This document shows positions 1 to 40,223 of a stretch of 53,290 nucleotides of DNA, piece after piece. The DNA lies in the UHGV virus genome UHGV-0119950. One strand, given 5' to 3'. The notes beneath the pieces are model-generated. The model ran no database searches. It had not been told where the DNA came from and saw nothing but the letters and a program-made list of their open reading frames with translations. A program made the position numbers and the translations under genes. Source of the stretch: a virus. Numbering within the stretch: position 1 is the first letter of the stretch; the number at the start of each line of letters is the position of its first letter.

Positions 1-50
1 AAGCGCAGGCGCAGCGATAAAGGAAAAAGATGACGCAGTAATTTATTCAT
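1..50 (-). CDS. phoQ: sensor kinase PhoQ, first 16 codons only (gene runs off the window)
   Basis: Minus-strand ATG overlaps phoP stop (TAATG); translation [16 protein letters not shown] resembles PhoQ N-terminus as I recall it. Confidence 0.5.
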   Translation of the reverse strand, partial: MNKLLRHLFPLSLRLR

Positions 51-724
51 TAGCGCAGTTCGAACAGGTATCCCTGACCACGGACGGTGGTAATCACATC
101 ATCAGGATATCGCGCCTGAATTTTTTTGCGTAAGCGCCCCATTAATACATCAATGGTATGGCTTTCACGCAGTTCCGCATCCGGGTAGAGCTGTAGCATC
201 AACGAATCTTTGCTGACGACTTTGCCATTATTGCGGATCAGCGTTTCCATAATGGTGTATTCAAACGCCGTCAGTTTTATCACTTCATCATTTACGGACA
301 ATTCACGGCGGGAGAGATCCACCTGAAAAGGCGGAATAGAGATAACCTGCGAGGCCAGGCCGCTGTTGCGGCGCATTAACGCCTGCATACGCGCGACCAC
401 TTCTTCAATATGAAACGGTTTTGTCACGTAGTCGTCGGCGCCTGCGCTCAGCACTTCCACTTTATCCTGCCAGCCTTCACGGGCGGTTAATACCAGAACA
501 GGAAGGGAAACGTCATTGCTGCGCCAGCGGCGGATCAGCGAAAGCCCGTCTTCATCCGGGAGGCCTAAATCGACGATGGCGATGTCCGGCAGATGCTCGT
601 TAAGATAATAATCGGCTTCCTTTGCATCTTCTGCGTCATCAACCTGGTGCCCCAAATCCTGTAATTGAACCTTCAGGTGGTGGCGTAATAAGGCATTATC
701 TTCGACAACCAGTACGCGCATCAT
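50..724 (-). CDS. phoP: response regulator PhoP (OmpR family)
   Basis: 224 aa; near-identical over its length to E. coli/Salmonella PhoP as I recall them ([19 protein letters not shown]...[12 protein letters not shown]); receiver plus winged-helix domains. Confidence 0.95.
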
Positions 725-794: not shown

Positions 795-2081
795 TTAAAT
801 AACTTTTTTCATACTCCCTCGCCCGTGGGGGCGTCCTGGGGGCAGTGCTGTCGGCATCTGATTGTTCAGCATGTTGACCTGATCCTGGTTCATGTCATCA
901 ATCCACTTGGAGTAAACCTCGTACACCATACGCGCATCTTCATGTCCCATCTGGCTGGCAATGAACGACGGGTTCGCTCCGGCCATCAGCGTCCAGCAGG
1001 CGTATGTGTGGCGCGACTGATATGGATTGCGCTTACGTATACCTGAAAGTTTAGTCCCACGTTTCCAGCCATACGAAATCGAGTCCTTGGAAAAGTAACC
1101 GCCTTTCGTTGATGAGTATGTTGTCGGTGAAAAAACGAAGCGAAGATATTGCTGCTCAGTTTTTCCGATCTCACGATGATGAAACTGAATTTCCTGTTTT
1201 GGACTGTTCCCGGTGATTTCGTATTGCTCCAGCAGAGCATCATGAGCAGGTTGCAGCAACGTTATCGTCCTTATCCCGGCATCTGTTTTAGGGGGTACAA
1301 ATACTCGCTTGTTCGTCAAATTTCTGGATACGTGGATTTCACCTTTTACCAAATCAATATCTTCCCATGCCAGTGCGCATATCTCGCCCGGCCTCATCCC
1401 TGTATGTACCGCAATAATGATGATTAATGCCTGGCTACGGGGAAGGGCGGCTATCAGTGCCTGGTACTCATGAAGTAAAAGTGGGTCGGGATCATTTTTA
1501 GATAACTTGAGTCGCGACACTCCTTCATAAGGAGCATGCAATATAAACTGGCTTCGGTTTGCAAGCTTCAGCATTTCTGATAAAACAGCCATCTGTTTAT
1601 TGACTGTTGAGGGCGCTCGCCCATTTTTGATGCGGTTTGGTATTGAAGGGTTGAAAACTTCCCCGGTCAGGAGTTCTTTGCGGTAATTCAGAATATCTGC
1701 GTGCTGAATATCAACCAGGCGTGTGTTCTCGCCCACTACTCGTTTCAGGGTTTTAACGACTGATGTGATGGATAGTAAAGTGGCTTCAGATACCTCCAGT
1801 GACTTTGTGTCTGTAAAAAAATCACTCAGTTCTTTGAATGTAGAGATCCGTTTTGTGGACGAAAATTTCTTAAGAGCTTTTGATTCCGGGAAACGATCTG
1901 CGTAGTCGAACTTACCGAGTTGTATCTCACTCACAATTGCCGCGCGCAGATTGCCCGCTTTTTTAATGTTGCTACTGTTGACAACCCAACCCTGGAGAAC
2001 TTCGCGGCAACGAATGCCGCGATAGATAAATGTGATCCTGATTTTTCCGTTATGCAGTTCAACACCAGTCGGATATTTCAT
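795..2081 (-). CDS. int: phage integrase, tyrosine recombinase
   Basis: 428 aa; C-terminal catalytic motifs (HTGMRPGE, RHTYACW...GHEDARMVYEVY); followed by xis on same strand; sits at prophage edge. Confidence 0.9.
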   Translation of the reverse strand: MKYPTGVELHNGKIRITFIYRGIRCREVLQGWVVNSSNIKKAGNLRAAIVSEIQLGKFDYADRFPESKALKKFSSTKRISTFKELSDFFTDTKSLEVSEATLLSITSVVKTLKRVVGENTRLVDIQHADILNYRKELLTGEVFNPSIPNRIKNGRAPSTVNKQMAVLSEMLKLANRSQFILHAPYEGVSRLKLSKNDPDPLLLHEYQALIAALPRSQALIIIIAVHTGMRPGEICALAWEDIDLVKGEIHVSRNLTNKRVFVPPKTDAGIRTITLLQPAHDALLEQYEITGNSPKQEIQFHHREIGKTEQQYLRFVFSPTTYSSTKGGYFSKDSISYGWKRGTKLSGIRKRNPYQSRHTYACWTLMAGANPSFIASQMGHEDARMVYEVYSKWIDDMNQDQVNMLNNQMPTALPPGRPHGRGSMKKVI

Positions 2082-3760: not shown

Positions 3761-6700
3761 TTATGCCTGTACGCGCAGCGCTTCAAGACGGCGCACATCA
3801 AAATCGTTGAGTTCTTCGGCGTAATCTTCGGTAATCGGCGCTGGCCATTCGCCAGTGTCGAACCCGTTCGCTATGGCGCGCATCGCTTTGCGGTATTCCA
3901 GCATGCCGAGTTCAAGCAGTTCTTCGGATGCCTCGATGATGGCGATCCAGTGGTAGTTCTCGTCTTTGTTGACGAATATCCAGAAAAACTGGTCCAGCGC
4001 TGCGGTTTCGCAGTACATGGCAGCGCTCAGGTGATAATCGCGCTCGATGATTTCCCGGTGCAGTTTGGCGCGTAGGCCTTCCTGCTTGATATTCCACATG
4101 CTGATAGTCTTCAGGTCAGCGCCGATGCGCAGGCCGCCCATGTCGATTTCAAGGTCTGGCCGCACGCGGATTTCCAGCCCGGTTTCCTCATCAATACCGA
4201 AATAGCTCACTTCTACGGCGCGGTTCGGATGCGTCAGCAGCTTCCCGGCGGTCGGGTGATTCAGCAGCGCTTTCTGGATGGCCTGCGCGGTGCTCAACTG
4301 CTGGCGGGTAACCAGAATTTTATCGCCGGGATTTTCTCGCCAAGCGTCAAGCAGCTCGTCGGCAAACACTGTTTCAGGTTTGACGGTTTTCACTGTCTGA
4401 ATCAGATCCGCTTTGGTGCCGGATACTTTCAACGGCTGTGGCTTCTGTGCTTCCTGTGCAACGAGATCAGGATTGATGATCGCCAGTTGCTCAAGCAGCG
4501 CGTCACGGCTTCCGCTGGTTTTCACCTGCGGCGGAAGGGTGGCGTTGTACTCTTTGATGCAGGCCTTCATTGCTGTGGCGGTATGCTTGGTTCCGTTCTC
4601 AATACGCTGGAACTCTTCAGGCAATTGCTCATATGATGCATACGATTCGTCAACGGATGCCCCAAGCGGTAACGGTGCGGGCAGGGTGGTGTTGTACTCT
4701 TCCAGTAGCGCTTTTATATCGTCGGCACTAAGCAGCGGCGGCAGGCTGGCGTTGTGCTCGTCGATAACCGCGCGGATCGTCGCTGTCGTCGTAAGCGCGC
4801 CTTCCGGGATTTCCGGTTCGATGCTGAACTCTTTTTCCAGTTGTTCAGGCTGTAACGCCAGCGCATGCACCAGGTTCCCCATATCCAGGACTTTGGTGCG
4901 TTCTTTCTGGATGGTTTTGGATACGTGGCGCGCCTCGAAATACATCAGCGATACCCGCGCATCTTTTACCATCGTCGAACTGATGCCATTCGCCGCGTGA
5001 TATACCTCGTTCGGTACGCCTTCATAACGCCCCGGCTCGAAGTATTCCGGCCACACTGGCGTTGGTTCTTCCTGTTGCGCTTCTGGCTCAGAATGGCTTG
5101 CAGAATCGTTGTTCTGGCTCACTTCCGACTGATTGTGGTCTACATCGGCTTGCTCGCCGGTATCTGCTTCTTCACCATTCCCCAAATCGCTTTCGCTTGT
5201 ACGCAGCGCATCACCAGTCTGTTTTTCATCACTGACAGTTTCTTGAACCTGCACATCGCTGGTGGTCTCCGCTTCCTGTTTTGTGCCATGAGTTGAGGAG
5301 TTCTGCATTAAAGCGGACACGTCGAAAATGTCGTCTGCAACTTTTTTCACCAGTTCAGGTTGCTCGGTTTGCTGGCTTGTCTCTGTCTTCACCCATTTCG
5401 GATCATTTGGGTCGCTGATACCCGGAACGAATTCACCGCGACCGGCGGCAAGCTGGCGTTCAACCTCTTCGCGGAGTAACTCAAGCGCAGAAGTGACCTT
5501 CTCGGGTGCCGGAGCCATCGGCATTGGCATTGATGAGCGACCGCAGGCGATATCAACGATCATTTCATCCGGGTGAGCGTGATCGGTTTCAGTCATGACA
5601 CGATTGAGATACTCGCGATGACGGAAAGGAGATTTAAACAGTTCCTCTGGCGTTGTTTTTACCGTAGCGACATTGCAGGCGCGGGAGTAATCCATCCCAC
5701 CAGGCATTTCTTCAAACAATTTGCAGGTCGCAATAAATTCATCGAGTACGTTATCTTCCCCTGAGCGGGAGAGATTCATAATGGCGTTGGCTTCAACATC
5801 GATCTCGAAGGAAGGGCTGTAAATATCGAACTCTTTGTTACGGGCGATCAGGCCAAGTGCTATTTCATATTCGAGCCCGGTTTTTGTCAGTGGAGTAAGA
5901 CGGTCAGTCTTATTACCGCCACCGGCGTTCGCGCCAGATGGTGTGCGATTAATTTCAGATACACGATTACCTTTGCACCACTCTTTAACGAGCAGCCCGC
6001 GATCAATATGAGGGGTATCGAACCATGTTTTCAGAAACTGGATAACGCTTGCCAGCTCAGGGATTTTGCCATCGGCAGGAAACACGCTCTTAACAGCATT
6101 TACCGCTTTATGGATATCGTGTTCAATGGCCTTTTTGAATGGTTCAACATTCTCAGCCGCAAGTAAAAGGTTCTGGACATATGAATTATCTGTGTCCATT
6201 TCCAGAGCGAGAATTGCTTTTTTCTGCTCTGCGTCGACATGATAGAGATACTCGCCATCGCCAATATGTTGAGCCAGAACACGATGACGGAAGGGCATTG
6301 TTGCCACAACGGTTAACTGAGGGTGTTCAGGTAGATCGCCATTGTCTTCAGTTGACGCCTGATCGTGCTGGATAATTTCGCCAGTTTCGGTATCGACAAC
6401 TTCTTCATTGCCAAAATCTTCCGTGTGATCTTCCAGCACTTCACCTGTTTCGGTATCAACACCATCAACGATACGCTGACGGGCGACGGCAACGGCCTCA
6501 GAAGAGGGCAACGTAACACCGGGGATCTGTACCCAGGTCATGTTGTCTTTGCCGAGTTGGTAGAAATCGCAGAACGTTAAGCTGAGTTCGCCTTCTGGCG
6601 GAAGCTCGTTAACGACGGGGAAATTAGTGGCAACAGCTTTAAAATAATCTTTCAGCTTTGCGCCGGATTTAATCAGGAGATAATCCAGTGTGGCATTTGC

Positions 6701-13714: not shown

Positions 13715-14280
13715 AATCAACGGTAGAAACAAAAATCATTGAGTTAGTGAAGTCAGGGCATGAGCTGGCGAAAGAACTGCATTGTGCTGAGTCTGCCGCG
13801 CTGGTGAACTATCTGGCAACGCAGCTTGAAGTGCATTTTGCCCGTAGCAATGCGCTGGCTGCAAAACTGAGCATGATTAACGACCTCATGGATGCCGCTG
13901 AACAGGCCAACAAACTGGCGCAGGAAGCAACGGAAAAACTGGTACAGGAGCGTGACGCTCTGGCTGCGGAACTAAGCGCAGTTGAGTCCATTCACAACGA
14001 TGCAGTATTCATCACTGACGAGCACTATGAGCAATGCCCGCGAGAAGTTCAGAAGATAGTTCGATCGCTGGCTGTGTTGCAGATACCTGCTTACGACTCT
14101 TTCCTGGATGAAGTGCGGGCGCATGACCTTAACGCCTTCATTCAGCATCACAGTGCAGAACTGGATGCGCATATTAAAAACGGTGGTGAGCAGTTCGACG
14201 AAAAATCAGTACGCATCAGAGACATCATCGTCTCAGTTCGCTTGTTCATGGATCAACTTCGCAAAGGCGGTGCAGCATGA
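13711..14280 (+). CDS. hypothetical coiled-coil protein
   Basis: ATG at 13711 with RBS GGGGAGG, overlaps upstream stop (ATGA). Confidence 0.45.
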   Translation: MKSTVETKIIELVKSGHELAKELHCAESAALVNYLATQLEVHFARSNALAAKLSMINDLMDAAEQANKLAQEATEKLVQERDALAAELSAVESIHNDAVFITDEHYEQCPREVQKIVRSLAVLQIPAYDSFLDEVRAHDLNAFIQHHSAELDAHIKNGGEQFDEKSVRIRDIIVSVRLFMDQLRKGGAA

Positions 14281-16825: not shown

Positions 16826-17082
16826 TGGATCAACTTCTGCAATACGCCACCAATCGGATTATAGAACTGGAAAACCTTCTGCTGGTGAATGTTGAGGAAA
16901 CGGTCTGGCCAGCAGAGGTTCAGATGGTTTTTAGTCAAATCGAAAACGCCGGGAGTTTCCCGGCGCACCACCAGCGCCGATTGCAGCACCACATCAACAG
17001 AATGTGGCTGGAAAAAATACCGGTTACTTCGATTATTGCCGCAGCGCGCTCGCTGGCAGATGCAATGGAGAAATACGCGTGA
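16822..17082 (+). CDS. hypothetical protein
   Basis: 86 aa ORF. Confidence 0.4.
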   Translation: MMDQLLQYATNRIIELENLLLVNVEETVWPAEVQMVFSQIENAGSFPAHHQRRLQHHINRMWLEKIPVTSIIAAARSLADAMEKYA

Positions 17083-19160
17083 GAAATAGCGAAATCATTG
17101 TTGATAATTTTGCTGGTGGCGGCGGTGCTTCCACTGGAATTGAGATGGCGACTGGCCGCAGCGTGGACATTGCGATTAACCACGATCCGAATGCCGTTGC
17201 GATGCACACGACAAACCACCCCAATACACTGCATTATTGCGAATCTGTCTACGATGTCAGGCCGAAGGTAGCGACCGCCGGGCGTCCGGTGGCGCTGGCG
17301 TGGTTCTCGCCGGATTGCCGTCACTTTTCAAAAGCCAAAGGTGCGAAGCCGGTAGAGAAAGCGATCCGGGGTCTGGCCTGGGTAGTTCTGCGCTGGGGGC
17401 TGGATGTAAAACCCCGGGTGATGAAACTGGAGAACGTCGAAGAATTTAAAACGTGGGGCCCTTTGCTCGCTGGTGAAATGAGGCCAGACCCGGCCCGTGC
17501 TGGAGAAAATTTTGAGGCGTTCATTGGTATGCTGACTACTGGCATCCGGGCTGACCACCCGGCACTGGCGGAGTGCTGTGAATTTCTGGGTATTTCTCTT
17601 GATAGTGAAGACGCCGCGAGGCTGATCAAAGGGCTGGGCTACATCGTCGAGTATCGCGAGTTGCGCGCCTGCGACTACGGTGCGCCGACGATCCGCAAGC
17701 GATTCTTTATGATTATGCGTTGTGACGGGAAACCGATTGTGTGGCCTGAGCCAACACATGGCGATCCGAAATCACCGGCTGTCCAGGCTGGTAAGCTGGC
17801 ACCGTGGCGCACAGCTGCGGAGTGCATAGACTGGACAATTCCGGCTCCATCGATATTCGATCGCAAAAAGCCGCTGGCAGAAAATACCCTTAAGCGCATC
17901 GCGCGCGGCATCCAGCGATTTGTTATCGACAGTGCGTCGCCGTTTATCGTGAAGTGCAACCACACCAGCAGCCGTTCAAGTTATGATTGTTTCCGTGGGC
18001 AGCCACTGGAAGAACCCCTGCAAACGATCACGAAAAAGCATGGTTACGCCGTCGCAGTACCACATCTGACGAAGTTCCGTACCGGCGCAACCGGGCAGGA
18101 AGTCACCGAACCTGTACCGACTGTAACAGCTGGCACGTCGGCGCGCCCGGGTGGGAATGGTCATGCGCTTGGTATCGTTGAAGCTGCGCTGACTCCGTTC
18201 CTGGCTGGTAATGGCGGCAGTGAGTACCAGGCTAAGCCGCGCCCGCTGGATAAACCAGCTCACACTATACTGAAACAATCCCGGGCATGTGTCGTTGCGC
18301 CGGTTATCGCCCGACAGTTTGGCGCCAGCACCGGCCACCGCGCAGATGAGCCGAACGCGACTATTACCGCTGGTGGCGGCGGTAAATCGCAACTTGTTAC
18401 ATCGACACTGATCCAGATGGGATACGGGGAAAGGCCAGGTCAGGAACCTCGCGTTCTCCAGATCGAAAAACCGTTAGGGACAGTAACCGCTGGTGGAAAC
18501 AAGTTCGCCGTGGCCAGCGCATTTCTGGCGAAGCACTACGGCGGCAACTATACGGGACCGGGCGTCGGGCTGGATGAGCCGACTCACTCAGTTACGACGG
18601 TTGATCATCATGCGGTTGTTGCGGCACATCTAATGGTGAACAACACCGGGCATCCTGGCGGCTCCGTGGACTCTCCAGCGCATACCGTTACAACAGGAAA
18701 TCACCATGCTGTAGTGACTTCTCATCTTGTGCATTTGCGAGGGTTCTGCAAAGACGGTCAAAAAATGGATCAGCCGGTGCCAACGATTACCGCCGGAGGC
18801 CAGCATGTTGGGGAGGTGAAAACCACTCTGGCAGTTGAGCACTACAACGAACAGCGCGCGCAACAGACGTTGGCGTTCCTGCGTGAATATTGCGGCGAAG
18901 ATTGTACCGGGCTGGTGGATATCGACGGGATCACATATCGTATTGTTGATATCGGAATGCGCATGCTGCAACCGCATGAGCTTTACCGCGCGCAGGGCTT
19001 CCCGGACTGGTACATCATCGATCGGGATTATCGCGGCGTGAAGTATGCAAAGGATAAGCAGGTTGCCCGCTGCGGTAATGCTGTGCCGCCACCGTTCGCC
19101 GAGGCTCTGGTAAGGGCCAATTTACCCGAACTTTGCCAGCCGAAAGAAATGGCAGCGTAA
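17079..19160 (+). CDS. DNA (cytosine-5) methyltransferase with eight tandem repeats in the variable region
   Basis: Motif I DNFAGGGG, motif IV SPDCRHFS (Cys present, PDC not PCQ), motif VI LENVEEF, motif IX QGFPDWY, motif X CGNAV; GTG at 17079 with GGAG upstream chosen over track start 17004. Confidence 0.8.
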   Translation: MRNSEIIVDNFAGGGGASTGIEMATGRSVDIAINHDPNAVAMHTTNHPNTLHYCESVYDVRPKVATAGRPVALAWFSPDCRHFSKAKGAKPVEKAIRGLAWVVLRWGLDVKPRVMKLENVEEFKTWGPLLAGEMRPDPARAGENFEAFIGMLTTGIRADHPALAECCEFLGISLDSEDAARLIKGLGYIVEYRELRACDYGAPTIRKRFFMIMRCDGKPIVWPEPTHGDPKSPAVQAGKLAPWRTAAECIDWTIPAPSIFDRKKPLAENTLKRIARGIQRFVIDSASPFIVKCNHTSSRSSYDCFRGQPLEEPLQTITKKHGYAVAVPHLTKFRTGATGQEVTEPVPTVTAGTSARPGGNGHALGIVEAALTPFLAGNGGSEYQAKPRPLDKPAHTILKQSRACVVAPVIARQFGASTGHRADEPNATITAGGGGKSQLVTSTLIQMGYGERPGQEPRVLQIEKPLGTVTAGGNKFAVASAFLAKHYGGNYTGPGVGLDEPTHSVTTVDHHAVVAAHLMVNNTGHPGGSVDSPAHTVTTGNHHAVVTSHLVHLRGFCKDGQKMDQPVPTITAGGQHVGEVKTTLAVEHYNEQRAQQTLAFLREYCGEDCTGLVDIDGITYRIVDIGMRMLQPHELYRAQGFPDWYIIDRDYRGVKYAKDKQVARCGNAVPPPFAEALVRANLPELCQPKEMAA

Positions 19161-19166
19161 TGTATA

Positions 19167-19200
19167 ATCCCTCTCAAAGCATCGAGAGGGATTCGTTTTT
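19167..19200 (+). terminator. rho-independent terminator after methyltransferase
   Basis: Stem ATCCCTCTC / GAGAGGGAT with 8-nt loop, followed by T-run. Confidence 0.5.
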
Positions 19201-19377
19201 CTTCGGTATCTCGCGCTGCGGACTGTAGAGTTTCCCGTTAATAACTATCCAGCTACCCTTAATCCACTTCGTGACCTGCTGTCGATTAACGCCCATATGT
19301 CTGGCGAACTCTGATTGATTTCCCTGGTGGTGAATAGCAATGTAATCGGTCAAGGTAAGAGCATTCATGTTATTCAC
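19174..19377 (-). CDS. Cro-like HTH DNA-binding protein
   Basis: 67 aa; HTH (QSEFARHMGVNRQQVTKWIKG); start overlaps stop of upstream acidic-protein gene. Confidence 0.5.
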   Translation of the reverse strand: MNNMNALTLTDYIAIHHQGNQSEFARHMGVNRQQVTKWIKGSWIVINGKLYSPQREIPKKNESLSML

Positions 19378-19840
19378 CTTTTACAGCAGGGTTGACGATC
19401 AGATAGCTGGTACCGTGCTCGTCTTCCATTTCTACAGCGTCGAAACCAAGATGGGCGGCAGCGCGACCTCTCAGGCGCTGCATTTCCCAACTAGCTGCTG
19501 CAAACTCATCCGCTGAATCAGTCCGAGGTGACAGAATATCAGCAAACGCGTCGTCACACTCATCGTCAGCCAGTGCGTATGCCAGCGCTTCCAGTTGTTC
19601 TTCGTCTGCTTCAACTTCACTACGCAGGAAACTTATGACATCAGCGATACGGTCGTGTAAGTCTCCATTATCTGCGATGATTTCAACGTTGTAGCTGTAA
19701 ACAAAATTACCGTGAGAGCCTGCAACATCGAAATCTGAGCAAGCAAAGATACCATCAAAAATATTGTCACCAGACATTGCGAAAGCGCCAACTTTGATTA
19801 CTGGAGCGGTGTTTTCGTATGAGCCGTGAAACAGTTTCAT
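19370..19840 (-). CDS. hypothetical strongly acidic protein
   Basis: 156 aa; long acidic stretch (EVEADEEQLEALAYALADDECDDAFADIL); co-oriented with downstream HTH gene. Confidence 0.5.
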   Translation of the reverse strand: MKLFHGSYENTAPVIKVGAFAMSGDNIFDGIFACSDFDVAGSHGNFVYSYNVEIIADNGDLHDRIADVISFLRSEVEADEEQLEALAYALADDECDDAFADILSPRTDSADEFAAASWEMQRLRGRAAAHLGFDAVEMEDEHGTSYLIVNPAVKGE

Positions 19841-19873
19841 GATGATTGTCCATTTTGTTTGTGTAAGTGTATT

Positions 19874-19893
19874 GTAATCAATAAATGATTACA
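19874..19893. promoter_or_regulatory. perfect inverted repeat, candidate operator
   Basis: TGTAATCA-ATA-TGATTACA (8-bp arms, 4-nt spacer) about 35 bp upstream of the acidic-protein gene start. Confidence 0.4.
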
Positions 19894-20072
19894 TTCAAGT
19901 GACTTTTATCACGGATCGGAAAGACATTGGTACGTGTATAATGATAAAAAATGAATACCGTAGGGGATTGCATGTCAGACTGGAATATCGCAGCAAAATA
20001 GAAAGAAGAGCAGGACAAGGTTAATGTTGATCTGGCCGCCAGCGGCGTTGCGTATAAAGAGCGCCTGAACAT

Positions 20073-20231
20073 GCCGGTTGTTGCTGAAGTGGTGATGCGT
20101 GAGCAGCCGGAGCACTTGCGCGACTATTTCATTGAGCGCGTCAGATACTATCGTGAGCAAAGCCTGAAGCTACCGAAATCATCCGATCCGCGCTACATCG
20201 AAATGGCTGAGCAGAACGCCAAAAAGTAACT
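20073..20231 (+). CDS. hypothetical small protein (52 aa)
   Basis: Not in ORF track; short ORF ([30 protein letters not shown]...) ending just before a strong terminator; coding status uncertain. Confidence 0.25.
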
Positions 20232-20248
20232 GAACATGGAATGAACTC

Positions 20249-20271
20249 AACCCGCTTCGGCGGGTTTTTTT
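20249..20271 (+). terminator. rho-independent terminator
   Basis: AACCCGCTTCGGCGGGTT hairpin followed by TTTTTTT. Confidence 0.6.
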
Positions 20272-20342
20272 ACGCCTGAAATTTGTGTCTACGGGTTAAC
20301 AATTCGTGCTCTTAAAACGTTGATCATTTCGTTTTATAGGTA

Positions 20343-22468: not shown

Positions 22469-22600
22469 AGCCTGAGGTTATTGAGTCTCTTCGCTGGCGC
22501 TGGCTGCGTCTCCGCATTTATCGCTACCGGGGATCTTTTCCTGTGGCATACCGCATCCTTCGCAATTACATCCGCATTGAAGAAAAACGGGAGCATCAAA

Positions 22601-23407
22601 ATGAATCTTGAGTCCTTACCAAAATATTTTTCGCCTAAATCCATGATGCTCGGCGCTGTTCCATGCGGAATTTCAGCAGACACGCTGACTATTACTGACG
22701 TAATGGCATCCCTCGGGCTACTTACTGCAAAAGCAGCGGTGGGTATTGAATTGTATCTGGCAAAAGCCGGGGTTTTATCCTCAGACAATATCATTGCCTA
22801 CATTAAGAAGCTGGCAGAGCAACGAGCAGAACGCCACGGAAAACTCAAAAAAATGGAAGAGAATGAGCGCTCAAAATTTCTCGATACTATGGCGCGTTAT
22901 GTGTTTCGCGATTATTCCCTCAGTGCGGCCAGTCTGATCACTTGCCCGGATTGCCACGGACAGAAGTTTATTGATGCTGAGGTTTTCACGAACAAGGTTA
23001 CTTTCCCGGATGGTAAGCCACCAAAATGGGTAAAAGATACGAAAGGTATTTCTCCGTCAGACTGGGAGGTGTGGAAATCAGTACGTGAGCAAGTGCGCGT
23101 CGTGTGTAAGACGTGCGATGGTAAAGGCCATGTGAAAAACGAATGCCGTTGCCGGGGGCGCGGAGAAATTCTCGATAAGAAAAAATCAGAGTTGCAGGGC
23201 GTTCCGGTTTATAAAAAATGCCCGAGATGCAAGGGAAGAGGTCACCCACGCCTCAAAGATACCGAGATTTTTAAAGCGCTGGGAATAACGGAAATGGTAT
23301 GGCGGTACAACTATAAACAGTTTTTCGATCGGCTGGTGGAGCATTGCCATATTGAGGAATCGTATGCAGAAAAGGTTCTGGGAAACGTGACCCGATGGCC
23401 AGCATAA
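22601..23407 (+). CDS. late antiterminator Q (phage 82 type)
   Basis: From internal ATG MNLESLPKYFSPKS; resembles Q82 as I recall it (MRLESVAKFHSPKS, CRDCHGTG, CGRCKG, QCHKEESIAD...NAVTR); located just before lysis genes. Confidence 0.7.
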   Translation: MNLESLPKYFSPKSMMLGAVPCGISADTLTITDVMASLGLLTAKAAVGIELYLAKAGVLSSDNIIAYIKKLAEQRAERHGKLKKMEENERSKFLDTMARYVFRDYSLSAASLITCPDCHGQKFIDAEVFTNKVTFPDGKPPKWVKDTKGISPSDWEVWKSVREQVRVVCKTCDGKGHVKNECRCRGRGEILDKKKSELQGVPVYKKCPRCKGRGHPRLKDTEIFKALGITEMVWRYNYKQFFDRLVEHCHIEESYAEKVLGNVTRWPA

Positions 23408-33051: not shown

Positions 33052-33999
33052 ATGGCTACGACCGTTAATACTGATCTGATTATTTATGACGATCTCGCGC
33101 AAACTGCGTTTCTGGAGCGCCGTCAGGATAATCTGGATGTTTTTAACCAGGCGTCTAATGGTGCAATCATTCTCGATAACGAACTGATCGAAGGTGATTT
33201 CCGTAAGCGCGCTTTCTATAAAGTCGGCGGTTCTATCGAAGCGCGTGACGTTAACTCTACTGACCCGGTAACGGGTAAAAAAATCGGTGCGGGCGAGTCC
33301 GTCAGCGTAAAAGCACCGTGGAAATATGGCCCGTACGAAACTACGGAAGAAGCGTTCAAGCGTCGTGGACGTGATGTGAGCGAGTTTTCTGAGGTGATCG
33401 GTGTCGATGTGGCTGATGCCACGCTGGAAGGCTATATCAAATACGCACTTCAGGGGCTGATTGCTGCTATTGGCGCTAACGCTGATATGGTCGTGACTGC
33501 GGATATTGCCACTGATGGCAAGAAAACGCTGACTCGCGGCCTGCGCACCTACGGCGATAAGTTCAACCGCGTTTCCCTGTTCGTCATGCACTCCACTACC
33601 TACTTCGATATTGTTGATCAGGCTATCGACAACAAAATCTACGAAGAAGCGGGCGTGGTCGTGTACGGCGGTCAGCCAGGTACGCTGGGTAAACCGGTTC
33701 TGGTAACCGATACGATGCCTGTTGATGCAATTCTGGGGCTGGTGGCCGGTGCTGTATCAGTAACTGAGTCTCAGGCGCCGGGGTTTCGCTCCTATGACAT
33801 CAACGACCAGGAAAACCTCGCGATCGGCTATCGTGCTGAAGGTACGGTGAACGTCGAACTGCTGGGGTACAGCTGGGACACCACCAAAGGCGAAAACCCG
33901 GACCTTACCGCCATTGGCACGCAGGGGAACTGGAAGAAACACTTCACCAGCAACAAATCCACTGCGGGGGTTTTGATTCAGCTCGGCGGCGGCAGCTAA
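33052..33999 (+). CDS. major capsid protein
   Basis: 315 aa after scaffold gene, followed by strong terminator. Confidence 0.65.
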   Translation: MATTVNTDLIIYDDLAQTAFLERRQDNLDVFNQASNGAIILDNELIEGDFRKRAFYKVGGSIEARDVNSTDPVTGKKIGAGESVSVKAPWKYGPYETTEEAFKRRGRDVSEFSEVIGVDVADATLEGYIKYALQGLIAAIGANADMVVTADIATDGKKTLTRGLRTYGDKFNRVSLFVMHSTTYFDIVDQAIDNKIYEEAGVVVYGGQPGTLGKPVLVTDTMPVDAILGLVAGAVSVTESQAPGFRSYDINDQENLAIGYRAEGTVNVELLGYSWDTTKGENPDLTAIGTQGNWKKHFTSNKSTAGVLIQLGGGS

Positions 34000-34004
34000 T
34001 CACC

Positions 34005-34027
34005 AGGGGCTTCGGCCCCTTTTTTAT
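34005..34027 (+). terminator. rho-independent terminator after capsid gene
   Basis: AGGGGCTTCGGCCCCT hairpin followed by TTTTTTT. Confidence 0.6.
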
Positions 34028-34152
34028 TGCGCGTCCACCGCGCCTGACAAACGAGAGTCTTTCAGAAAGTGAGCCTGAGAACGCCGTACAGGTGGCGACC
34101 TCTCTCGGGCTGCGTTCTGGTGGACAGGCTCACTTTTTAAAAGGAAACGCAG

Positions 34153-34356
34153 ATGAAATACCAGATAGCGAAGTTATACCGTGGAGACCATTTCCTTGGT
34201 TACGGTATTGCCGTGGATGGTCAGCTACTGGATGGACAGGCCTCGACCAGCATTAACACCGAAATAACTTCCTTGCCAACGGTCACAGTGGTTTTTAACC
34301 TCAATAAAGACCACGCCGAAAATCAAATCACCATTGACCTTGACGAGAAGGTATAA
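34153..34356 (+). CDS. hypothetical small protein
   Basis: 67 aa ORF immediately upstream of glycosyltransferase gene. Confidence 0.35.
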   Translation: MKYQIAKLYRGDHFLGYGIAVDGQLLDGQASTSINTEITSLPTVTVVFNLNKDHAENQITIDLDEKV

Positions 34357-34359
34357 GCA

Positions 34360-35820
34360 ATGGATGTCATTGTTGGTGGGGTTCCTTATGTCCGCGCCGA
34401 TAGCGTTTCCCATAATAAAATTGGAATCGCGATAACCACTCACAACAGGCCGGATGTCCTCGCAAAATCACTTGAGCAACATCGAAAATATTTACCTCCC
34501 GGTGCGGTCGTGTTCGTCATTGATGATGGTTCAAATCCGCCAGCAACAGCTCCGGGTTGGTGTAATTTAATCCGGCACGATAATTCAAAAGGCATTGTTG
34601 CTTCGAAGAACGCCAGTCTTACAGCGCTGATGGATGCCGGGTGCGAGCATCTTTTTTTATGGGACGATGACGCATGGCCGATTGCCGATGGCTGGCATCT
34701 TCCGTATATCGAATCGCCTGAGCCGCATCTTGCGTATCAGTTCCTCGACCTTGCCGGGCCGCGAAAACTTAACGATCTCGCTGTGCTTTATAGCGACGAT
34801 AAGCATGTGGCGTACACCGGACAGCGCGGCGTGATGCTGTATTACCACCGCAGCGCTATCGAGCGTGTCGGTGGTTTCGACTGGATTTACGGGCGCGGCA
34901 TGTACGAACACAGCGACCTTGCCCTGCGCATCCATAACGCCGGGCTGACGACGTGGGTTTATGCCGACGTCACCAGCTCAGATAAGTTGATTCATTCGCT
35001 CGATGAGCATGAAGCTGTAGACCGTTCGGTGCCAACGGCAGACAGGAAAGCGCTGGTGGAACGTAATGTAAAAATCCACAACGAGCGGCGCGATACGGGG
35101 TATACCGGCTATGTCGAATACCGGCGCCAGCGCGACGTTGTGATCACAACATTACTGACGAGCCAACCGGACCCGCAGCGCGGTACGAAAATGACGGCCT
35201 CGCCTGACATGCTGGCTAAATGGGCGGCTTCGCTCCGGCAGTGTGGACGTATCGCGCTGGTGGATGAATTACTAACGGCCCCGGCAGATGTTGAGCTATG
35301 TCGCGTTCCTGACGTGAAGATGAATGTCTACTTTCGTCGCTGGTTGCACATCTGGCAGCACCTGCGAGATCACCCTGAATACCGGTTCGTCTGGTGTACC
35401 GATGGTACCGATGTCGAAATGCTTCGCGCGCCATGGGAAGAAATGGAGGCCGGGAAGCTCTACGTTGGCTCGGAGCCGAAAACTTACGCTGACGCCTGGG
35501 CAAAACAGAATCATCCTGAACGCATCTATCAGGAATTCATCGAACAGCATCGCAACGATGTGATGCTTAACGCCGGGCTTCTGGGTGGCACGCGCGCTGA
35601 TGTGATGGCGTTCGCTCACGGCATCATCCGTCTTTACTACCGGATCGAGAGTTATCGGTTCTGGAAGACAGAGCAGGCTGATGCAGCGGTGGGCGATATG
35701 ATCGCATTTGGCATTGTCGCGCAGTCATTTGGCGATCGCATTGTCACCGGCCCGCGCATCCACACAGTGTTTAAGTCTGAAGGTATCGGTAAGGAGTACG
35801 CCTGGTTTAAACATAAATAA
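34360..35820 (+). CDS. two-domain glycosyltransferase (N-terminal GT-A/GT2-like)
   Basis: 486 aa; GIAITTHNRPDVLAKSL...VFVIDDGSNP and LWDDDAWP (DxD) match GT2 signatures; C-terminal half not identified. Confidence 0.7.
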   Translation: MDVIVGGVPYVRADSVSHNKIGIAITTHNRPDVLAKSLEQHRKYLPPGAVVFVIDDGSNPPATAPGWCNLIRHDNSKGIVASKNASLTALMDAGCEHLFLWDDDAWPIADGWHLPYIESPEPHLAYQFLDLAGPRKLNDLAVLYSDDKHVAYTGQRGVMLYYHRSAIERVGGFDWIYGRGMYEHSDLALRIHNAGLTTWVYADVTSSDKLIHSLDEHEAVDRSVPTADRKALVERNVKIHNERRDTGYTGYVEYRRQRDVVITTLLTSQPDPQRGTKMTASPDMLAKWAASLRQCGRIALVDELLTAPADVELCRVPDVKMNVYFRRWLHIWQHLRDHPEYRFVWCTDGTDVEMLRAPWEEMEAGKLYVGSEPKTYADAWAKQNHPERIYQEFIEQHRNDVMLNAGLLGGTRADVMAFAHGIIRLYYRIESYRFWKTEQADAAVGDMIAFGIVAQSFGDRIVTGPRIHTVFKSEGIGKEYAWFKHK

Positions 35821-35832
35821 GGAGAATTTTGC

Positions 35833-35988
35833 ATGTCTAACGAAGAAAACGTGGAGAAGCTGGTAAAGAAAAGCGTCCCTGACAAAAATGAGACGCTTGT
35901 GTTAGACCGATTAAAAGAATCTATTCTTGACTGGGCGGCTTGTCTAAAGAGCGCTTCACAGTTGCCAGAGCATCCCTGGCGGCATTGA
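35833..35988 (+). CDS. hypothetical small protein (51 aa)
   Basis: Not in ORF track; RBS AAGGAG; 3' end overlaps convergent minus-strand ORF; uncertain. Confidence 0.3.
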   Translation: MSNEENVEKLVKKSVPDKNETLVLDRLKESILDWAACLKSASQLPEHPWRH

Positions 35989-36178
35989 TAAATCTCTCAT
36001 CATGAGAGGCTGCGGAGTTAGGAAGCTCTTTTACGAGATTTTCCATTTCAGCGATCAGATAAGTGGAAACGCCATTATTCACACTCAATTTATCCATGGC
36101 GCTGATCATTTTAGGGAGGAGAAATCCAACCTGTAACTCGAGAGTAAAAATTCTGTCAAAAAGCTCTTTGCTATCCAT
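35921..36178 (-). CDS. hypothetical small helical protein
   Basis: 85 aa minus-strand ORF with AAGGA upstream; convergent with 35833..35988. Confidence 0.35.
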   Translation of the reverse strand: MDSKELFDRIFTLELQVGFLLPKMISAMDKLSVNNGVSTYLIAEMENLVKELPNSAASHDERFINAARDALATVKRSLDKPPSQE

Positions 36179-36307
36179 TAATTTCCTTATTCAGAGGTAA
36201 TCAGCCATCCCTCCGTACCTGAGTGCGCCAGTGTCCCACCACTGACGGGCTGAATGTTTACCTTAACCAGGGTTAAAGAGAAGCAACACCCTGATATTCA
36301 GACAGTA

Positions 36308-36330
36308 GCCGCCATCGTGCGGCTTTTTTA
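36308..36330 (+). terminator. rho-independent terminator-like hairpin
   Basis: AGCCGCCATCGTGCGGCT followed by TTTTTTATT. Confidence 0.45.
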
Positions 36331-36344
36331 TTGGAGATTCGCTG

Positions 36345-36941
36345 GTGGCTGAAAAAATAAAGTTTGTGGTTATCGGCCATCGCTCAAGAGAACCTCAGGC
36401 GCGAGCGCTGGCCTACCAAATCGGCCCCTCCGCCCACGTGATGATCGACCCTGACAGCCATGGAGCAGCATGGAATCACCGACGTGCGCTTGAGTGGGCT
36501 ACTGAACAGGACTGTCGGGTTGTAATCATTGAGGATGACGCGATACCTGTATCGTGCTTTGTGGCTCTGATTACTGGATGGTTAGAGCGCTTCCCCGACA
36601 CCCTGTTGAGCTTTTACCTGGGCACTGGCCGACCGCCGCAGTACCAGATGCAGATTGCTGAACGTTTGATCGTTGCCGATAAAACGCGCGCTGACTTCAT
36701 CACGTTGCCACGATTAATACATGGTGTGTGCTACAGCGTCCCGCCCCAGCATATTGAGCGCGTGTTATCTCGATGGGACAGCAGTAAGCCAGCCGATTAT
36801 GCCGTGGGTGATGCCTGGGGCGGTTCAGTGGTCTATCCGTGTTACTCACTGGTGGAGCATGCCGACGGTGAACCGGTAGAGCGTCATCCAGACAGAATAC
36901 CGCGCACAGAGCGCCGACGGGCGTGGAGATTATCTCAATGA
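36345..36941 (+). CDS. putative nucleotide-sugar transferase-like protein
   Basis: 198 aa, GTG start with GGAG upstream; VVIIEDDA resembles a DxD motif; weak assignment. Confidence 0.4.
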   Translation: MAEKIKFVVIGHRSREPQARALAYQIGPSAHVMIDPDSHGAAWNHRRALEWATEQDCRVVIIEDDAIPVSCFVALITGWLERFPDTLLSFYLGTGRPPQYQMQIAERLIVADKTRADFITLPRLIHGVCYSVPPQHIERVLSRWDSSKPADYAVGDAWGGSVVYPCYSLVEHADGEPVERHPDRIPRTERRRAWRLSQ

Positions 36942-37333
36942 CAACCTATATAACCGTTGCCGATGTTGACCAGTTGCTTGGCGAAAACTGGACTGAGCCA
37001 GATAAAAAGGCAAAAGCGGTTCTGATGGCCAATACCTGGATGACAGGCCTAAATCTTCAGGATATCGACCTCAATAATATCCCTGATGATGTAAAACAGG
37101 CCGGGGCATACGCTGCTTCCGTCGCGGCTGCTGGCAATCTATATCAACAAAAAACAGATTCTGGCGTGGTGACGAGTAAAAGCGTTGAAGCCGATGATGT
37201 GAAGGTTTCCAGAACGTTTGCCGAGCTTTCAACAAGCAGCACTGAATTACTTGATCCTGATTTGCAACTGGCGCTGGCCATGCTCAATCCATGGATGCTT
37301 AGCCCGTTCCAGACGTTCTTTGTGAGGTCTTGA
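36938..37333 (+). CDS. head-tail connector / head completion protein
   Basis: 132 aa from ATG overlapping upstream stop; position between head and tail modules. Confidence 0.45.
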   Translation: MTTYITVADVDQLLGENWTEPDKKAKAVLMANTWMTGLNLQDIDLNNIPDDVKQAGAYAASVAAAGNLYQQKTDSGVVTSKSVEADDVKVSRTFAELSTSSTELLDPDLQLALAMLNPWMLSPFQTFFVRS

Positions 37334-37334
37334 T

Positions 37335-37589
37335 ATGTCCGATTTTAAAGTTGTCCCATTTCAAAAGACCAATCAGCACAAAGTGGATAATGGTGAGGTT
37401 ATTCGCTTGCTGAAACAGGCCCTGGAACACGCAGAAAATGGGGGGTGCCACAGCGTTGCAGTGATACTGCTTGATGATGCCGGGAATGCAATCGATTGTT
37501 GGCATAACGGTGGTCGGCCGTATGTAATGGTGGGTGCTATGGAGTCGCTTAAAACGGATTTTATCCATACTCATATTGAGCGGCGGTGA
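37335..37589 (+). CDS. hypothetical protein
   Basis: 84 aa ORF within structural module. Confidence 0.35.
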   Translation: MSDFKVVPFQKTNQHKVDNGEVIRLLKQALEHAENGGCHSVAVILLDDAGNAIDCWHNGGRPYVMVGAMESLKTDFIHTHIERR

Positions 37590-38774: not shown

Positions 38775-39695
38775 ATGTCGAGCGGCGCTAAGGTACTCTC
38801 GGCCTTTATACGGGAAACTACGGTAGGTGTAACTCCGGCAGGAGCGTGGAGTCTGATAAAGCGCTCCGCGTGGGGGGTGAAACCGACCCAAAACACAAAT
38901 GACAATGACGAAATCGGTGGCACCCGCATGGCGCAGGGTATGTCGATGGGCACCGTTGATGTCGGTGGCGATGTGGCGACGAAGTTTCGCTGGGGACAGC
39001 ATGATGCGTTTCTGGCGTCCTGCTTCGGTGCTGACTGGGTTGGCGATAGCCTGACTATGGGTAATGAACGTATCACGTTCTCACTCGCAACGTATGCTTC
39101 CGATGTTGGTATCGCCTCTATCGTTCGCGGCGCGCAGGTAAGCGTGTTCCAGTTGGAGGTTCCTAACGACGGTGATGTTACCGCGACGATCACTTTCGCC
39201 GGGCTGGGCTGGGATTCGAAAGCTGATGACACCAGTTATATCGAAGGAACACCTGCGGATAACTCTGGCGAGCTGCGTTACTCGTTCAAAGAGGTCACGG
39301 CAATCAACCTGAACGGCATCGACGGCGGTGATGGTTTCTGTATCGACACCTTCAACATCCAGTTCGACAACAACGTTCAGACCCAGCGTTGTATCGGCAC
39401 CGGCTCACCATATGCCGGGGCCAATATTCCGACTACGTTCACGCCGTCAGGTTCAATCACATTATCCTGGTCTAAAGCTGCGTGGGAGGTTTGGAGCAAA
39501 ACACTGACCGGGGCGACGGTGCCGTTTAGCTTCACCCTGGCGAACGACGAAGGGCAGTACACTTTCAACTTCCCGAAAGTACAGGTCGCAGGCGACTGGC
39601 CGGATGGGGGCAATACCGACATTATCCAGGTTCAACTCGATATCACTGCGGCAGACGAGTCACCGACCATTACCCGCACAGCTGCGGGCAGTTAA
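38775..39695 (+). CDS. major tail (tube) protein
   Basis: 306 aa between tail completion genes and the chaperone/tape-measure block. Confidence 0.6.
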   Translation: MSSGAKVLSAFIRETTVGVTPAGAWSLIKRSAWGVKPTQNTNDNDEIGGTRMAQGMSMGTVDVGGDVATKFRWGQHDAFLASCFGADWVGDSLTMGNERITFSLATYASDVGIASIVRGAQVSVFQLEVPNDGDVTATITFAGLGWDSKADDTSYIEGTPADNSGELRYSFKEVTAINLNGIDGGDGFCIDTFNIQFDNNVQTQRCIGTGSPYAGANIPTTFTPSGSITLSWSKAAWEVWSKTLTGATVPFSFTLANDEGQYTFNFPKVQVAGDWPDGGNTDIIQVQLDITAADESPTITRTAAGS

Positions 39696-39755: not shown

Positions 39756-40223
39756 ATGATTATCCTCAACCCACGAATTGATGTTGGTGGCGAGCGCTGG
39801 TTTACGCCGCTGAAAGATCTCAAACCCATTGAAGGCCTAAAGCTGCTCGTCAGCAGCGTTGATAACGACCAGTATCGCTCGCGTAATGCGCTTATACGCC
39901 GCCACATTGAAAAAATGGATGCCAGTTACCAGGTGGGAACCAGCGAATTTAGCCTGTCTGCGGTCGGGGAAATTGACTCTGCCGATGATCTTCTGATCGA
40001 CAACTGCGCGCGTTACCTGCTGAAAGACTGGAAGGGCGTTGGTGAGCTTGTTGAAGGCGAAGAAGTTCCGATTGAGTACACACCTGAACGCGGCGCTGCA
40101 CTTCTGAAACAGGAACCAGCAATTTACTGGCAAATTCTGGCTGAAGCCGCCAGCATCGCTCAGGGCAAAGAGCAGCAAAAGCAGGAAACCGTAAAAAAGC
40201 CATCGAAGCGCAGAAATGGCTAA
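39756..40223 (+). CDS. tail assembly chaperone (gpG-like)
   Basis: ATG with RBS AGGAG; directly upstream of tape measure gene; slippery A_AAA_AAG near 3' end. Confidence 0.6.
   Translation: MIILNPRIDVGGERWFTPLKDLKPIEGLKLLVSSVDNDQYRSRNALIRRHIEKMDASYQVGTSEFSLSAVGEIDSADDLLIDNCARYLLKDWKGVGELVEGEEVPIEYTPERGAALLKQEPAIYWQILAEAASIAQGKEQQKQETVKKPSKRRNG

Follow-up and report, generated by a model that had tools for sequence, protein, structure and literature searches.

What are glycosyltransferase genes doing among the head genes of a temperate phage? UHGV virus genome UHGV-0119950, whose whole stretch of 53,290 nucleotides we call the window, raises this question at positions 34153-36941, where the genes for a 486-residue protein (GT486, 34360-35820, plus strand) and a 198-residue protein (GT198, 36345-36941, plus strand) stand between the major capsid gene and a head-tail adaptor gene. 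An earlier note on this DNA had put forward a candidate system for the glycosylation of virion proteins, and the present analysis lends that proposal support. Because both enzymes are homologous to glycosyltransferases (GTs) that modify mycobacteriophage virions, and because their presence co-varies with Gly-Ser (GS) ends on structural proteins, we favor the reading that the block is a virion glycosylation cassette, and consider it likely to correspond, in enterobacterial phages, to the system found in mycobacteriophages Che8, Corndog and Myrna. GT carriers almost always have a capsid protein ending in GS, and usually a tail tube protein that does so as well, so the phage probably glycosylates its own particle.

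Results

Homology to mycobacteriophage virion glycosyltransferases

GT198 aligns by BLASTP with Che8 gp110 at 34% identity over 194 amino acids (aa; E 1e-26), and likewise with Corndog gp38 (E 4e-16) and Myrna gp238 (E 9e-14). In the alignment R15, N44-H45, EDDA-P, S-YLG, H126, SLV-H-D and R-AW are invariant. A search with GT198 matched 723 phage records, 662 from Mycobacterium, 25 from Gordonia and about 32 from enterobacterial phages. GT486 in turn shares 38% identity with Myrna gp234 over residues 20-486 (E 9e-94), and its C-terminal domain alone matches 383 phage records by tblastn, 350 of them from Mycobacterium, with about 40% identity over the whole domain and E values around 1e-47; many cluster-F GTs are matched by this domain at about 40% identity. 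Neither Che8 gp108/gp109 nor the Corndog methyltransferase has a homologue in the window cassette, and GT486 itself has no match to Che8 gp108/109.

One report gives the two transferases essential to capsid glycosylation as Che8 gp110 and Corndog gp38 (PMC12363180). According to three reports, the virion proteins of Che8, Corndog and Myrna are glycosylated, and the modification falls on capsid and tail-tube subunits and lowers antibody recognition (PMC12363180, PMC11600133, PMC11256854).

Relatives of the GT486 C-terminal domain, at about 45% identity, also occur in the jumbo phages LPKP23 (Klebsiella) and KpXa_1 (Serratia), both about 300 kb, and Klebsiella and Serratia phage records are likewise among the GT198 matches. 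The system may reach beyond lambdoid siphophages.

Two predicted glycosyltransferases

Judged from motifs, family profiles and predicted folds, GT486 and GT198 are both glycosyltransferases, soluble and intact. All open reading frames (ORFs), motifs and hairpins that had been reported for this region were recovered from the window sequence at the same positions, including the GT2 signatures of the longer protein, VVFVIDDGSNPP at residues 50-61 and LFLWDDDAWP at residues 98-107. The N-terminal domain of GT486 (about residues 1-255) resembles the GT2/GT7C type of GT-A fold, with D55-D56, DDD102-104 and E183-H184 each at least 90% conserved in the family; it passes the Pfam GT2 model PF00535 narrowly (23.4 bits, cutoff 23.3), and the protein belongs to phrog_1579 (E 1e-245). 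A search of 1.84 billion representatives yielded 2,345 relatives of GT486, most of them full-length, two-domain proteins of 450-500 aa. Among 97 diverse family members, 70 match GT2 (best E 2.5e-10) and 67 match Glyco_transf_7C, and the family profile matches GT-A domains in the PDB, namely those of TagF, the chondroitin (K4CP) and heparosan synthases, B4GalT7 and ppGalNAcT1. Searches of the PDB with single enzyme sequences or shallow profiles returned nothing useful, NCBIfam gave only a sub-threshold match to the MftF N-terminus, and PADLOC and anti-defence families gave no match.

The C-terminal domain of GT486 (about residues 256-486) carries the motifs DPQRG and WCTDGTDVE, as well as DxTD and NAGxxGG. 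Its tentative assignment as a transferase-like domain draws on the GT annotation of its actinophage homologues together with the DPQRG, DxTD and NAGxxGG motifs; hhalign comparisons of this domain with the N-terminal domain and with GT198 were not significant, even with a diverse alignment. GT198 has the motif RVVIIEDDAIP at residues 58-68, with EDD at 63-65, and its predicted structure (predicted local distance difference test, pLDDT, 74) is a minimal Rossmann-like GT-A fold of GT25-like type, with the DXD-type motif after strand beta-4. Of the family classification raised in the earlier note for both proteins, Pfam models supplied that of the GT2-like N-terminal domain of GT486 and not that of its C-terminal domain; GT198, which has no Pfam match, is GT25-like by its predicted fold. 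The claim that neither protein has a transmembrane segment holds: the highest Kyte-Doolittle mean over 19 residues is 1.13 in GT486 and 1.78 in GT198, in the latter on the DXD strand.

Co-variation with C-terminal Gly-Ser tails

Freeman et al. 2023 reportedly found mycobacteriophage glycans to be O-linked and placed at the C-termini of virion proteins. In the window, 145 ORFs are at least 80 aa long, and only two of them end in GS: the 315-aa major capsid protein (33052-33999, plus strand; Pfam Gp13-like, E 4e-105), which ends ...VLIQLGGGS, and the 306-aa tail tube protein (38775-39695, plus strand; Pfam Phage_tube_2), which ends ...TITRTAAGS. The last residues of the former (codons 33985-33996, plus strand) form the proposed acceptor tag, and the tube supplies a second proposed acceptor. 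Every capsid in the GT-positive loci first examined ends in GS, be it of the Gp13-like family or of the HK97-like lineages (96-98%, 84% and 37% identity), and the tails leading to it vary, with ...QLGGGS in the window type and ...FSSGS, ...ESGS and ...TGAGS/...GSGS in three HK97-like lineages. Tubes of GT-positive phages end ...TAAGS (window), ...ASGS (mEp390) and ...ESGS/...DPGS (another tube lineage), whereas GT-negative tubes end ...PAPSAG or carry an immunoglobulin (Ig)-like domain. The Che8 capsid ends ...KTGS, the Che8 tube ...SDGS and the Corndog capsid ...LVGS.

The association was counted in a survey of 80 relatives of each of three capsid families, taken with 10-kb flanks, in which a locus entered as GT-negative only where the candidate slots were covered. 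The window capsid family contains 5 loci with both a GS end and GT198 and 46 with neither, and none in either mixed class (Fisher p 4e-7). For the HK97 gp5-like family the counts are 52 with both, 2 with a GS end only, none with GT198 only and 1 with neither (p 0.055); for the 37%-identity lineage they are 14, 4, 1 (a capsid ending ...GATS) and 37 (p 7e-9). BLASTP similarity among the three capsid families is undetectable or marginal, and the GS tail is found in two window-type lineages with differing cassettes, the GT198 of locus L170 being only 58% identical. Pooled, 71 loci have both features, 84 neither, 6 a GS end without GT198 and 1 GT198 without a GS end, and neither these counts nor the p values take shared ancestry into account, which is the first of several points that weigh against virion glycosylation.

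Others concern the tails themselves. In the window type the cassette physically adjoins the 3' end of the capsid gene, which bears on co-variation there. The tube of Corndog has the ending ...GDS. Among relatives of the window, three that are GT-positive have tubes extended by an Ig-like domain and lacking a final GS, and one that is GT-negative has a tube ending ...PAGS; GS tails are also kept without GT genes in HK97, HK022 and six surveyed loci. Further points concern the enzymes: the C-terminal 230 residues of GT486 match no Pfam or other curated family, also when searched across the 97 family members, the AlphaFold2 model of GT486, built from 49 sequences at 77-93% identity, has a pLDDT of 45, and PHROGs places both enzymes in its category 'moron, auxiliary metabolic gene'. 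Finally, no experiment on virion glycosylation in any enterobacterial phage was found in the literature.

Individual phages depart from the pairing in both directions. HK633 has GT198 without GT486, and its capsid ends ...FSSGS, as do those of HK97 and HK022; locus L098 has GT486 alone and a capsid that does not end in GS, and in L277 GT198 accompanies a capsid whose last residues are ...GATS. HK022 has neither GT gene, and the last ~30 nt of a GT198 gene (...ERRRAWRLA-stop) are fused upstream of its HNH gp74-like gene, at about 4545-4580 of locus L335 (about 40045-40080 of the HK022 record). This remnant, a deletion scar, points to loss of the cassette. Together with the GS ends that remain on the capsids and adaptors of HK97 and HK022, it suggests that these model phages descend from a cassette-bearing ancestor.

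A different ending occurs in L280 (IMGVR_UViG_2643221773_000004), whose capsid ends ...SGVPTT and whose tube ends ...RPATT; it has a GT486-like gene and no GT198, and its ...TT ends may be a variant tag served by a different initiating enzyme. In mEp390 (L008), the adaptor (...PEEGS, 5170-5496) and the tail fibre (...EDSGS, 18992-20326) also end in GS, besides capsid and tube, and may be additional targets. The adaptors of HK97 and HK022 end ...SEEGS. A literature search on whether the HK97 gp5 C-terminus lies at the surface turned up data for BPP-1 only.

A mobile cassette with a preferred site

Eighty IMG/VR loci that encode a GT486 relative (identity 83% or higher) were compared, and in these GT198 directly follows GT486 wherever the locus extends far enough, with nothing, an HNH homing endonuclease gene or the small ORF pair orf51/orf85 in between. 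On this comparison GT486 and GT198 are a mobile two-gene cassette. In 78 of the 80 loci, which span several terminase and capsid lineages of HK97-like phages, the cassette follows the lysis genes and precedes the HNH(gp74)/terminase genes, in the order lysis genes, GT486, GT198, HNH, terminase; the isolates mEp390, HK542, ECP1, ENT39118, FSL SP-016 and AsXd-1 carry the pair at this site. Placement between capsid and adaptor is found in the remaining two loci, both of the window type, so that capsid adjacency, which the earlier note had used as an argument, turns out to be an exception. HNH genes of at least two types have repeatedly inserted just ahead of GT486 or between it and GT198 (L012, L018, L025, L043, L051 and others; L001 6271-6783), and the cassette appears to be a homing hotspot.

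An insertion in the head gene cluster

By comparison with Klebsiella phages that share the head module, the 2.9-kb block is an insertion, as gene-order comparison had been expected to reveal. These phages have the same terminase, portal, MuF, scaffold and capsid module, with DNA about 80% identical to the window, and run from the capsid gene through a slot of about 320 bp (a small ORF for an Ig-like domain and a terminator) to the adaptor gene. Homology to the window stops at about 33983, inside the last capsid codons, and at this junction the capsid end switches from ...VLIKLEAPAGE in the relatives without GT genes to ...VLIQLGGGS in the window. At the right edge stands the head-tail adaptor Ad1 (36938-37333, plus strand; phrog_493, E 9e-46), 81% identical in protein sequence to the post-capsid adaptor of Klebsiella phage ST846-OXA48phi9.2. 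The tube shows a corresponding exchange: its core ends ...PTITR, after which the relatives continue with an 89-aa Ig-like domain and the window has TAAGS.

In the GT-less relatives, the post-capsid slot encodes an Ig-like domain of about 90 aa in a frame that differs from that of the capsid (L004 9083-9403; L005 15056-15328). The window tube tail (39680-39695) and capsid tail both have a short ...GS in place of Ig-like domains. It seems that these C-termini are decorated either by an Ig-like domain or by a GS tag.

The left edge of the inserted block is an intrinsic terminator-like hairpin (GGGGC-TTCG-GCCCC and a T-run, 34005-34020, plus strand), and a second one (AGCCGC-CATCGT-GCGGCT and a T-run, 36307-36324, plus strand) precedes GT198. 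Terminator-like sites in the region are as frequent as expected by chance (6 found, 6.3 expected), and both of these are textbook hairpins in intergenic positions. The block has a guanine-cytosine content of 0.521, identical to that of the late region, in keeping with the backbone-like composition described before. No plus-strand sigma-70-like promoter was found ahead of the GT genes. The true start of the adaptor gene, ATG at 36938, overlaps the GT198 stop codon as ATGA.

Three small ORFs accompany the enzymes. A 67-aa ORF of unassigned function (34153-34356, plus strand; phrog_10235, E 7e-29) precedes GT486, and is found upstream of it in some relatives at 96-100% identity (L011/L090) or 41-59% identity (L036/L080). 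Between the GT genes lie orf51, a 51-aa ORF with no Pfam or PHROGs family match (35833-35988, plus strand), and orf85, an 85-aa moron-like passenger (35921-36178, minus strand; phrog_18136, E 1e-46), which are convergent and overlap by 68 nt. The 51-aa ORF is accompanied by orf85 in L032 and L035 and is probably outside the enzyme system.

Upstream of orf85 on the minus strand lies a conserved intergenic element (36179-36344), which ends with the second hairpin. At otherwise unrelated positions it recurs with 88-93% identity in HK022 (13978-14124; L006 2501-2647), HK633 (L007 4001-4201), SPN3UB and Oslo. In HK022 its neighbours are the minus-strand srb moron and gpJ, and in HK633 and the window they are GT198 and a small ORF on the minus strand; the promoter of the minus-strand ORF probably lies within it. 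Similarity of orf85 to HK022 Srb and HK633 gp65 was not significant, and because the accompanying small proteins are not homologous, the element looks like a portable promoter/terminator module of morons. An Rfam scan of 33900-37400 returned a chance RybB match only (E 0.99) and no family for the element.

Layout of the window

By its gene content, read from left to right, the window is a lambdoid prophage. A host gene for an OmpR-type response regulator (50-724, minus strand) abuts int (795-2081, minus strand) and marks the left prophage boundary, 32 kb separating int from the GT block. The genes between int and the late region follow the order RecT/RecE, O/P and a C5-cytosine DNA methyltransferase gene (17004-19160). 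This methylase has 718 aa, unusually long for an orphan phage methylase, with PF00145 matched in three stretches of its C-terminal part and about 300 N-terminal residues without a Pfam match. Q (22481-23407), holin and endolysin follow, and after the lysis genes come TerS, TerL, portal, MuF-like protein, scaffold, capsid and tail genes, which places the cassette in the late operon.

Discussion

How would such a cassette work? The GT genes would be transcribed late with the structural genes, Q antitermination reading through both flanking terminators. GT198, as a member of the gp110 family, would recognize the flexible ...G-S tail of the capsid (...GGGS) and tube (...AAGS) proteins and attach a first sugar, donated by a nucleotide-sugar of the host, to the terminal serine, which is the sole hydroxyl residue in ...QLGGGS. 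We infer this initiating, tag-recognizing role for GT198 because its family is the only one common to Che8, Corndog, Myrna and the enterobacterial phages, and because it tracks the tag. The two GT486 domains would then extend the glycan, and the particle surface would come to be coated with short O-glycans, for which masking or shielding of the surface, adhesion and stability are candidate benefits. The co-variation across capsid and tube tails suggests that the Gly-Ser tail is the actual acceptor.

Among the alternatives, the one that survives best, unlikely as we judge it, is a lysogenic-conversion moron, in which the soluble GTs, working on the cytoplasmic side of the membrane, would modify undecaprenyl pyrophosphate-linked O-units, the lipopolysaccharide (LPS) core or enterobacterial common antigen, altering the host surface and blocking superinfection. 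The lysis-terminase junction favored by the cassette is a classical moron site, the PHROGs category of the enzymes agrees with this view, GT198 is GT25-like, a family known from the synthesis of lipooligosaccharide and LPS, and the block is flanked by terminators and holds a promoter/terminator element that it has in common with an HK022 moron. The absence of transmembrane segments, which had been held against envelope-glycan enzymes, does not exclude them; most O-unit and core transferases are peripheral proteins. Against a conversion moron, there is no plus-strand sigma-70-like promoter ahead of the GT genes; GT198 and the adaptor overlap by start and stop codon, and GT198 is therefore tied to late translation. 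Gtr-like membrane partners are lacking as well, the nearest characterized relatives modify the virions of phages whose hosts have no LPS, and host-surface modification gives no reason for Gly-Ser tails of the capsid to co-vary with the genes.

It is quite unlikely that the enzymes act late in the cytoplasm on a target other than the virion, be it a host protein, a signalling nucleotide or a non-structural phage protein, with the GS tails unrelated. GT-A enzymes are chemically versatile, and the C-terminal domain of GT486 is without a curated family, both of which would leave room for such a target; against it stand the lack of PADLOC or anti-defence matches, the homology to capsid-modifying enzymes and the co-variation of GS tails across capsid and tube families that are unrelated in sequence.

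Hypermodification of DNA, in which the GTs would glycosylate hydroxymethylated bases in the manner of T4 a/b-GT or TET-associated GTs, is very improbable. DNA GTs (T4 a/b-GT, TAGT and base-J JGT-like enzymes) share the GT-A fold and a DDD motif with the cassette, the window encodes the 718-aa C5-cytosine methyltransferase, and the Pfam TAGT model gives a weak match to the window protein (E 0.016) and to 16 of the 97 family members (best 2.5e-5). That match scores 15.5 bits in the window protein against a gathering threshold of 27.5, is confined to the generic half of GT-A that binds nucleotides, and is outscored by GT2. Known DNA GT pathways always co-encode a 5mYOX/TET or ThyS enzyme (10.1101/2023.12.21.572611). 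A scan of the large window ORFs, of 110 aa and above, found neither a 5mYOX/TET enzyme nor a dCMP/dUMP hydroxymethylase (ThyS-like), and mEp390 carries the GT pair with neither methylase nor oxygenase annotated; on these grounds DNA glycosylation was rejected. Equally improbable is a decaying passenger without current function in the window prophage, since, for all that some lineages have lost the cassette (HK022 with the last ~30 nt of GT198, L098 with GT486 alone), neither ORF is truncated or lacks any residue invariant in its family, the identical protein is found on 6 contigs, and the pair is kept in hundreds of phages.

Returning to glycosylation of the virion, a stronger form of this reading is that the gp110/GT198 family recognizes Gly-Ser-COOH at a C-terminus, with nothing added, as a minimal and portable tag for glycosylation; this is plausible, and we put it forward tentatively. 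If it holds, tag and enzyme have moved between phages of Actinobacteria and Enterobacteriaceae, and any tagged virion protein would be marked, in mEp390 the capsid, tube, adaptor and fibre. GS tags would then alternate in evolution with Ig-like C-terminal domains as means of particle decoration, many HK97-like coliphages would have glycosylated virions, and the ...SSGS end of the HK97 capsid would be a relic of a lost cassette.

Should virion glycosylation be borne out, a large group of lambdoid phages, from E. coli, Klebsiella, Enterobacter, Citrobacter, Cronobacter, Salmonella and Serratia would be found to make glycosylated particles, a conserved and unexplained feature of HK97-family capsid proteins would gain meaning, and Ig-like decoration domains and glycans would be linked as alternative surface coats. 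The cultivable K-12 phages mEp390, HK542 and ECP1 carry the pair, and with them the chemistry, the rule for acceptors and the biological role would be easy to study. It is possible that a two-gene cassette and a two-residue tag could then serve as a simple means of protecting therapeutic phages, or nanoparticles derived from phages, from antibodies by a coat of glycans.

Comparison with known systems

Like GtrABC, the cassette consists of phage-borne glycosyltransferases of temperate enterobacterial phages. GtrABC comprises a flippase, a membrane GT2 (GtrB) and a polytopic GtrC next to int/att, whereas the cassette has none of these features; Pfam and NCBIfam scans returned no match to Gtr families, and transmembrane segments are absent. 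The PBCV-1 A064R-type enzymes, STIV A197 and the GT25s of giant viruses are, like the cassette enzymes, virus-encoded cytoplasmic GT-A enzymes, and are thought or have been shown to modify the capsid protein of their own virus. The A064R-type GTs are multi-domain, as is GT486. Similarity between these enzymes of large and archaeal viruses and the cassette is at the level of the fold only (8-15% identity), and the acceptor sites differ; we know of no C-terminal tag for their capsid GTs.

The mycobacteriophage system and the window cassette are both multi-GT cassettes of soluble enzymes. In Che8 the order is GT genes gp108-110, gp111, HNH gp112, cos and terminase, with the GT genes at the right end of the genome, and most enterobacterial relatives of the window likewise have the pair just upstream of the HNH/cos/terminase junction. 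Corndog (gp35-38) has a methyltransferase and three GTs between its portal and protease genes, inside the head cluster, so that the earlier description of mycobacteriophage GTs as lying beside capsid genes is borne out by Corndog and not by Che8. The window cassette stands between capsid and adaptor, and, unlike mycobacteriophages, its carriers are lambdoid temperate siphophages of Gram-negative Enterobacteriaceae. In the literature we found no paper on this GT pair in enterobacterial phages, and particle glycosylation shown for mycobacteriophages only and for no Gram-negative phage. The window would thus place a known type of system, the glycosylation of mycobacteriophage virions, in a new group of hosts, together with an explicit and testable acceptor rule.

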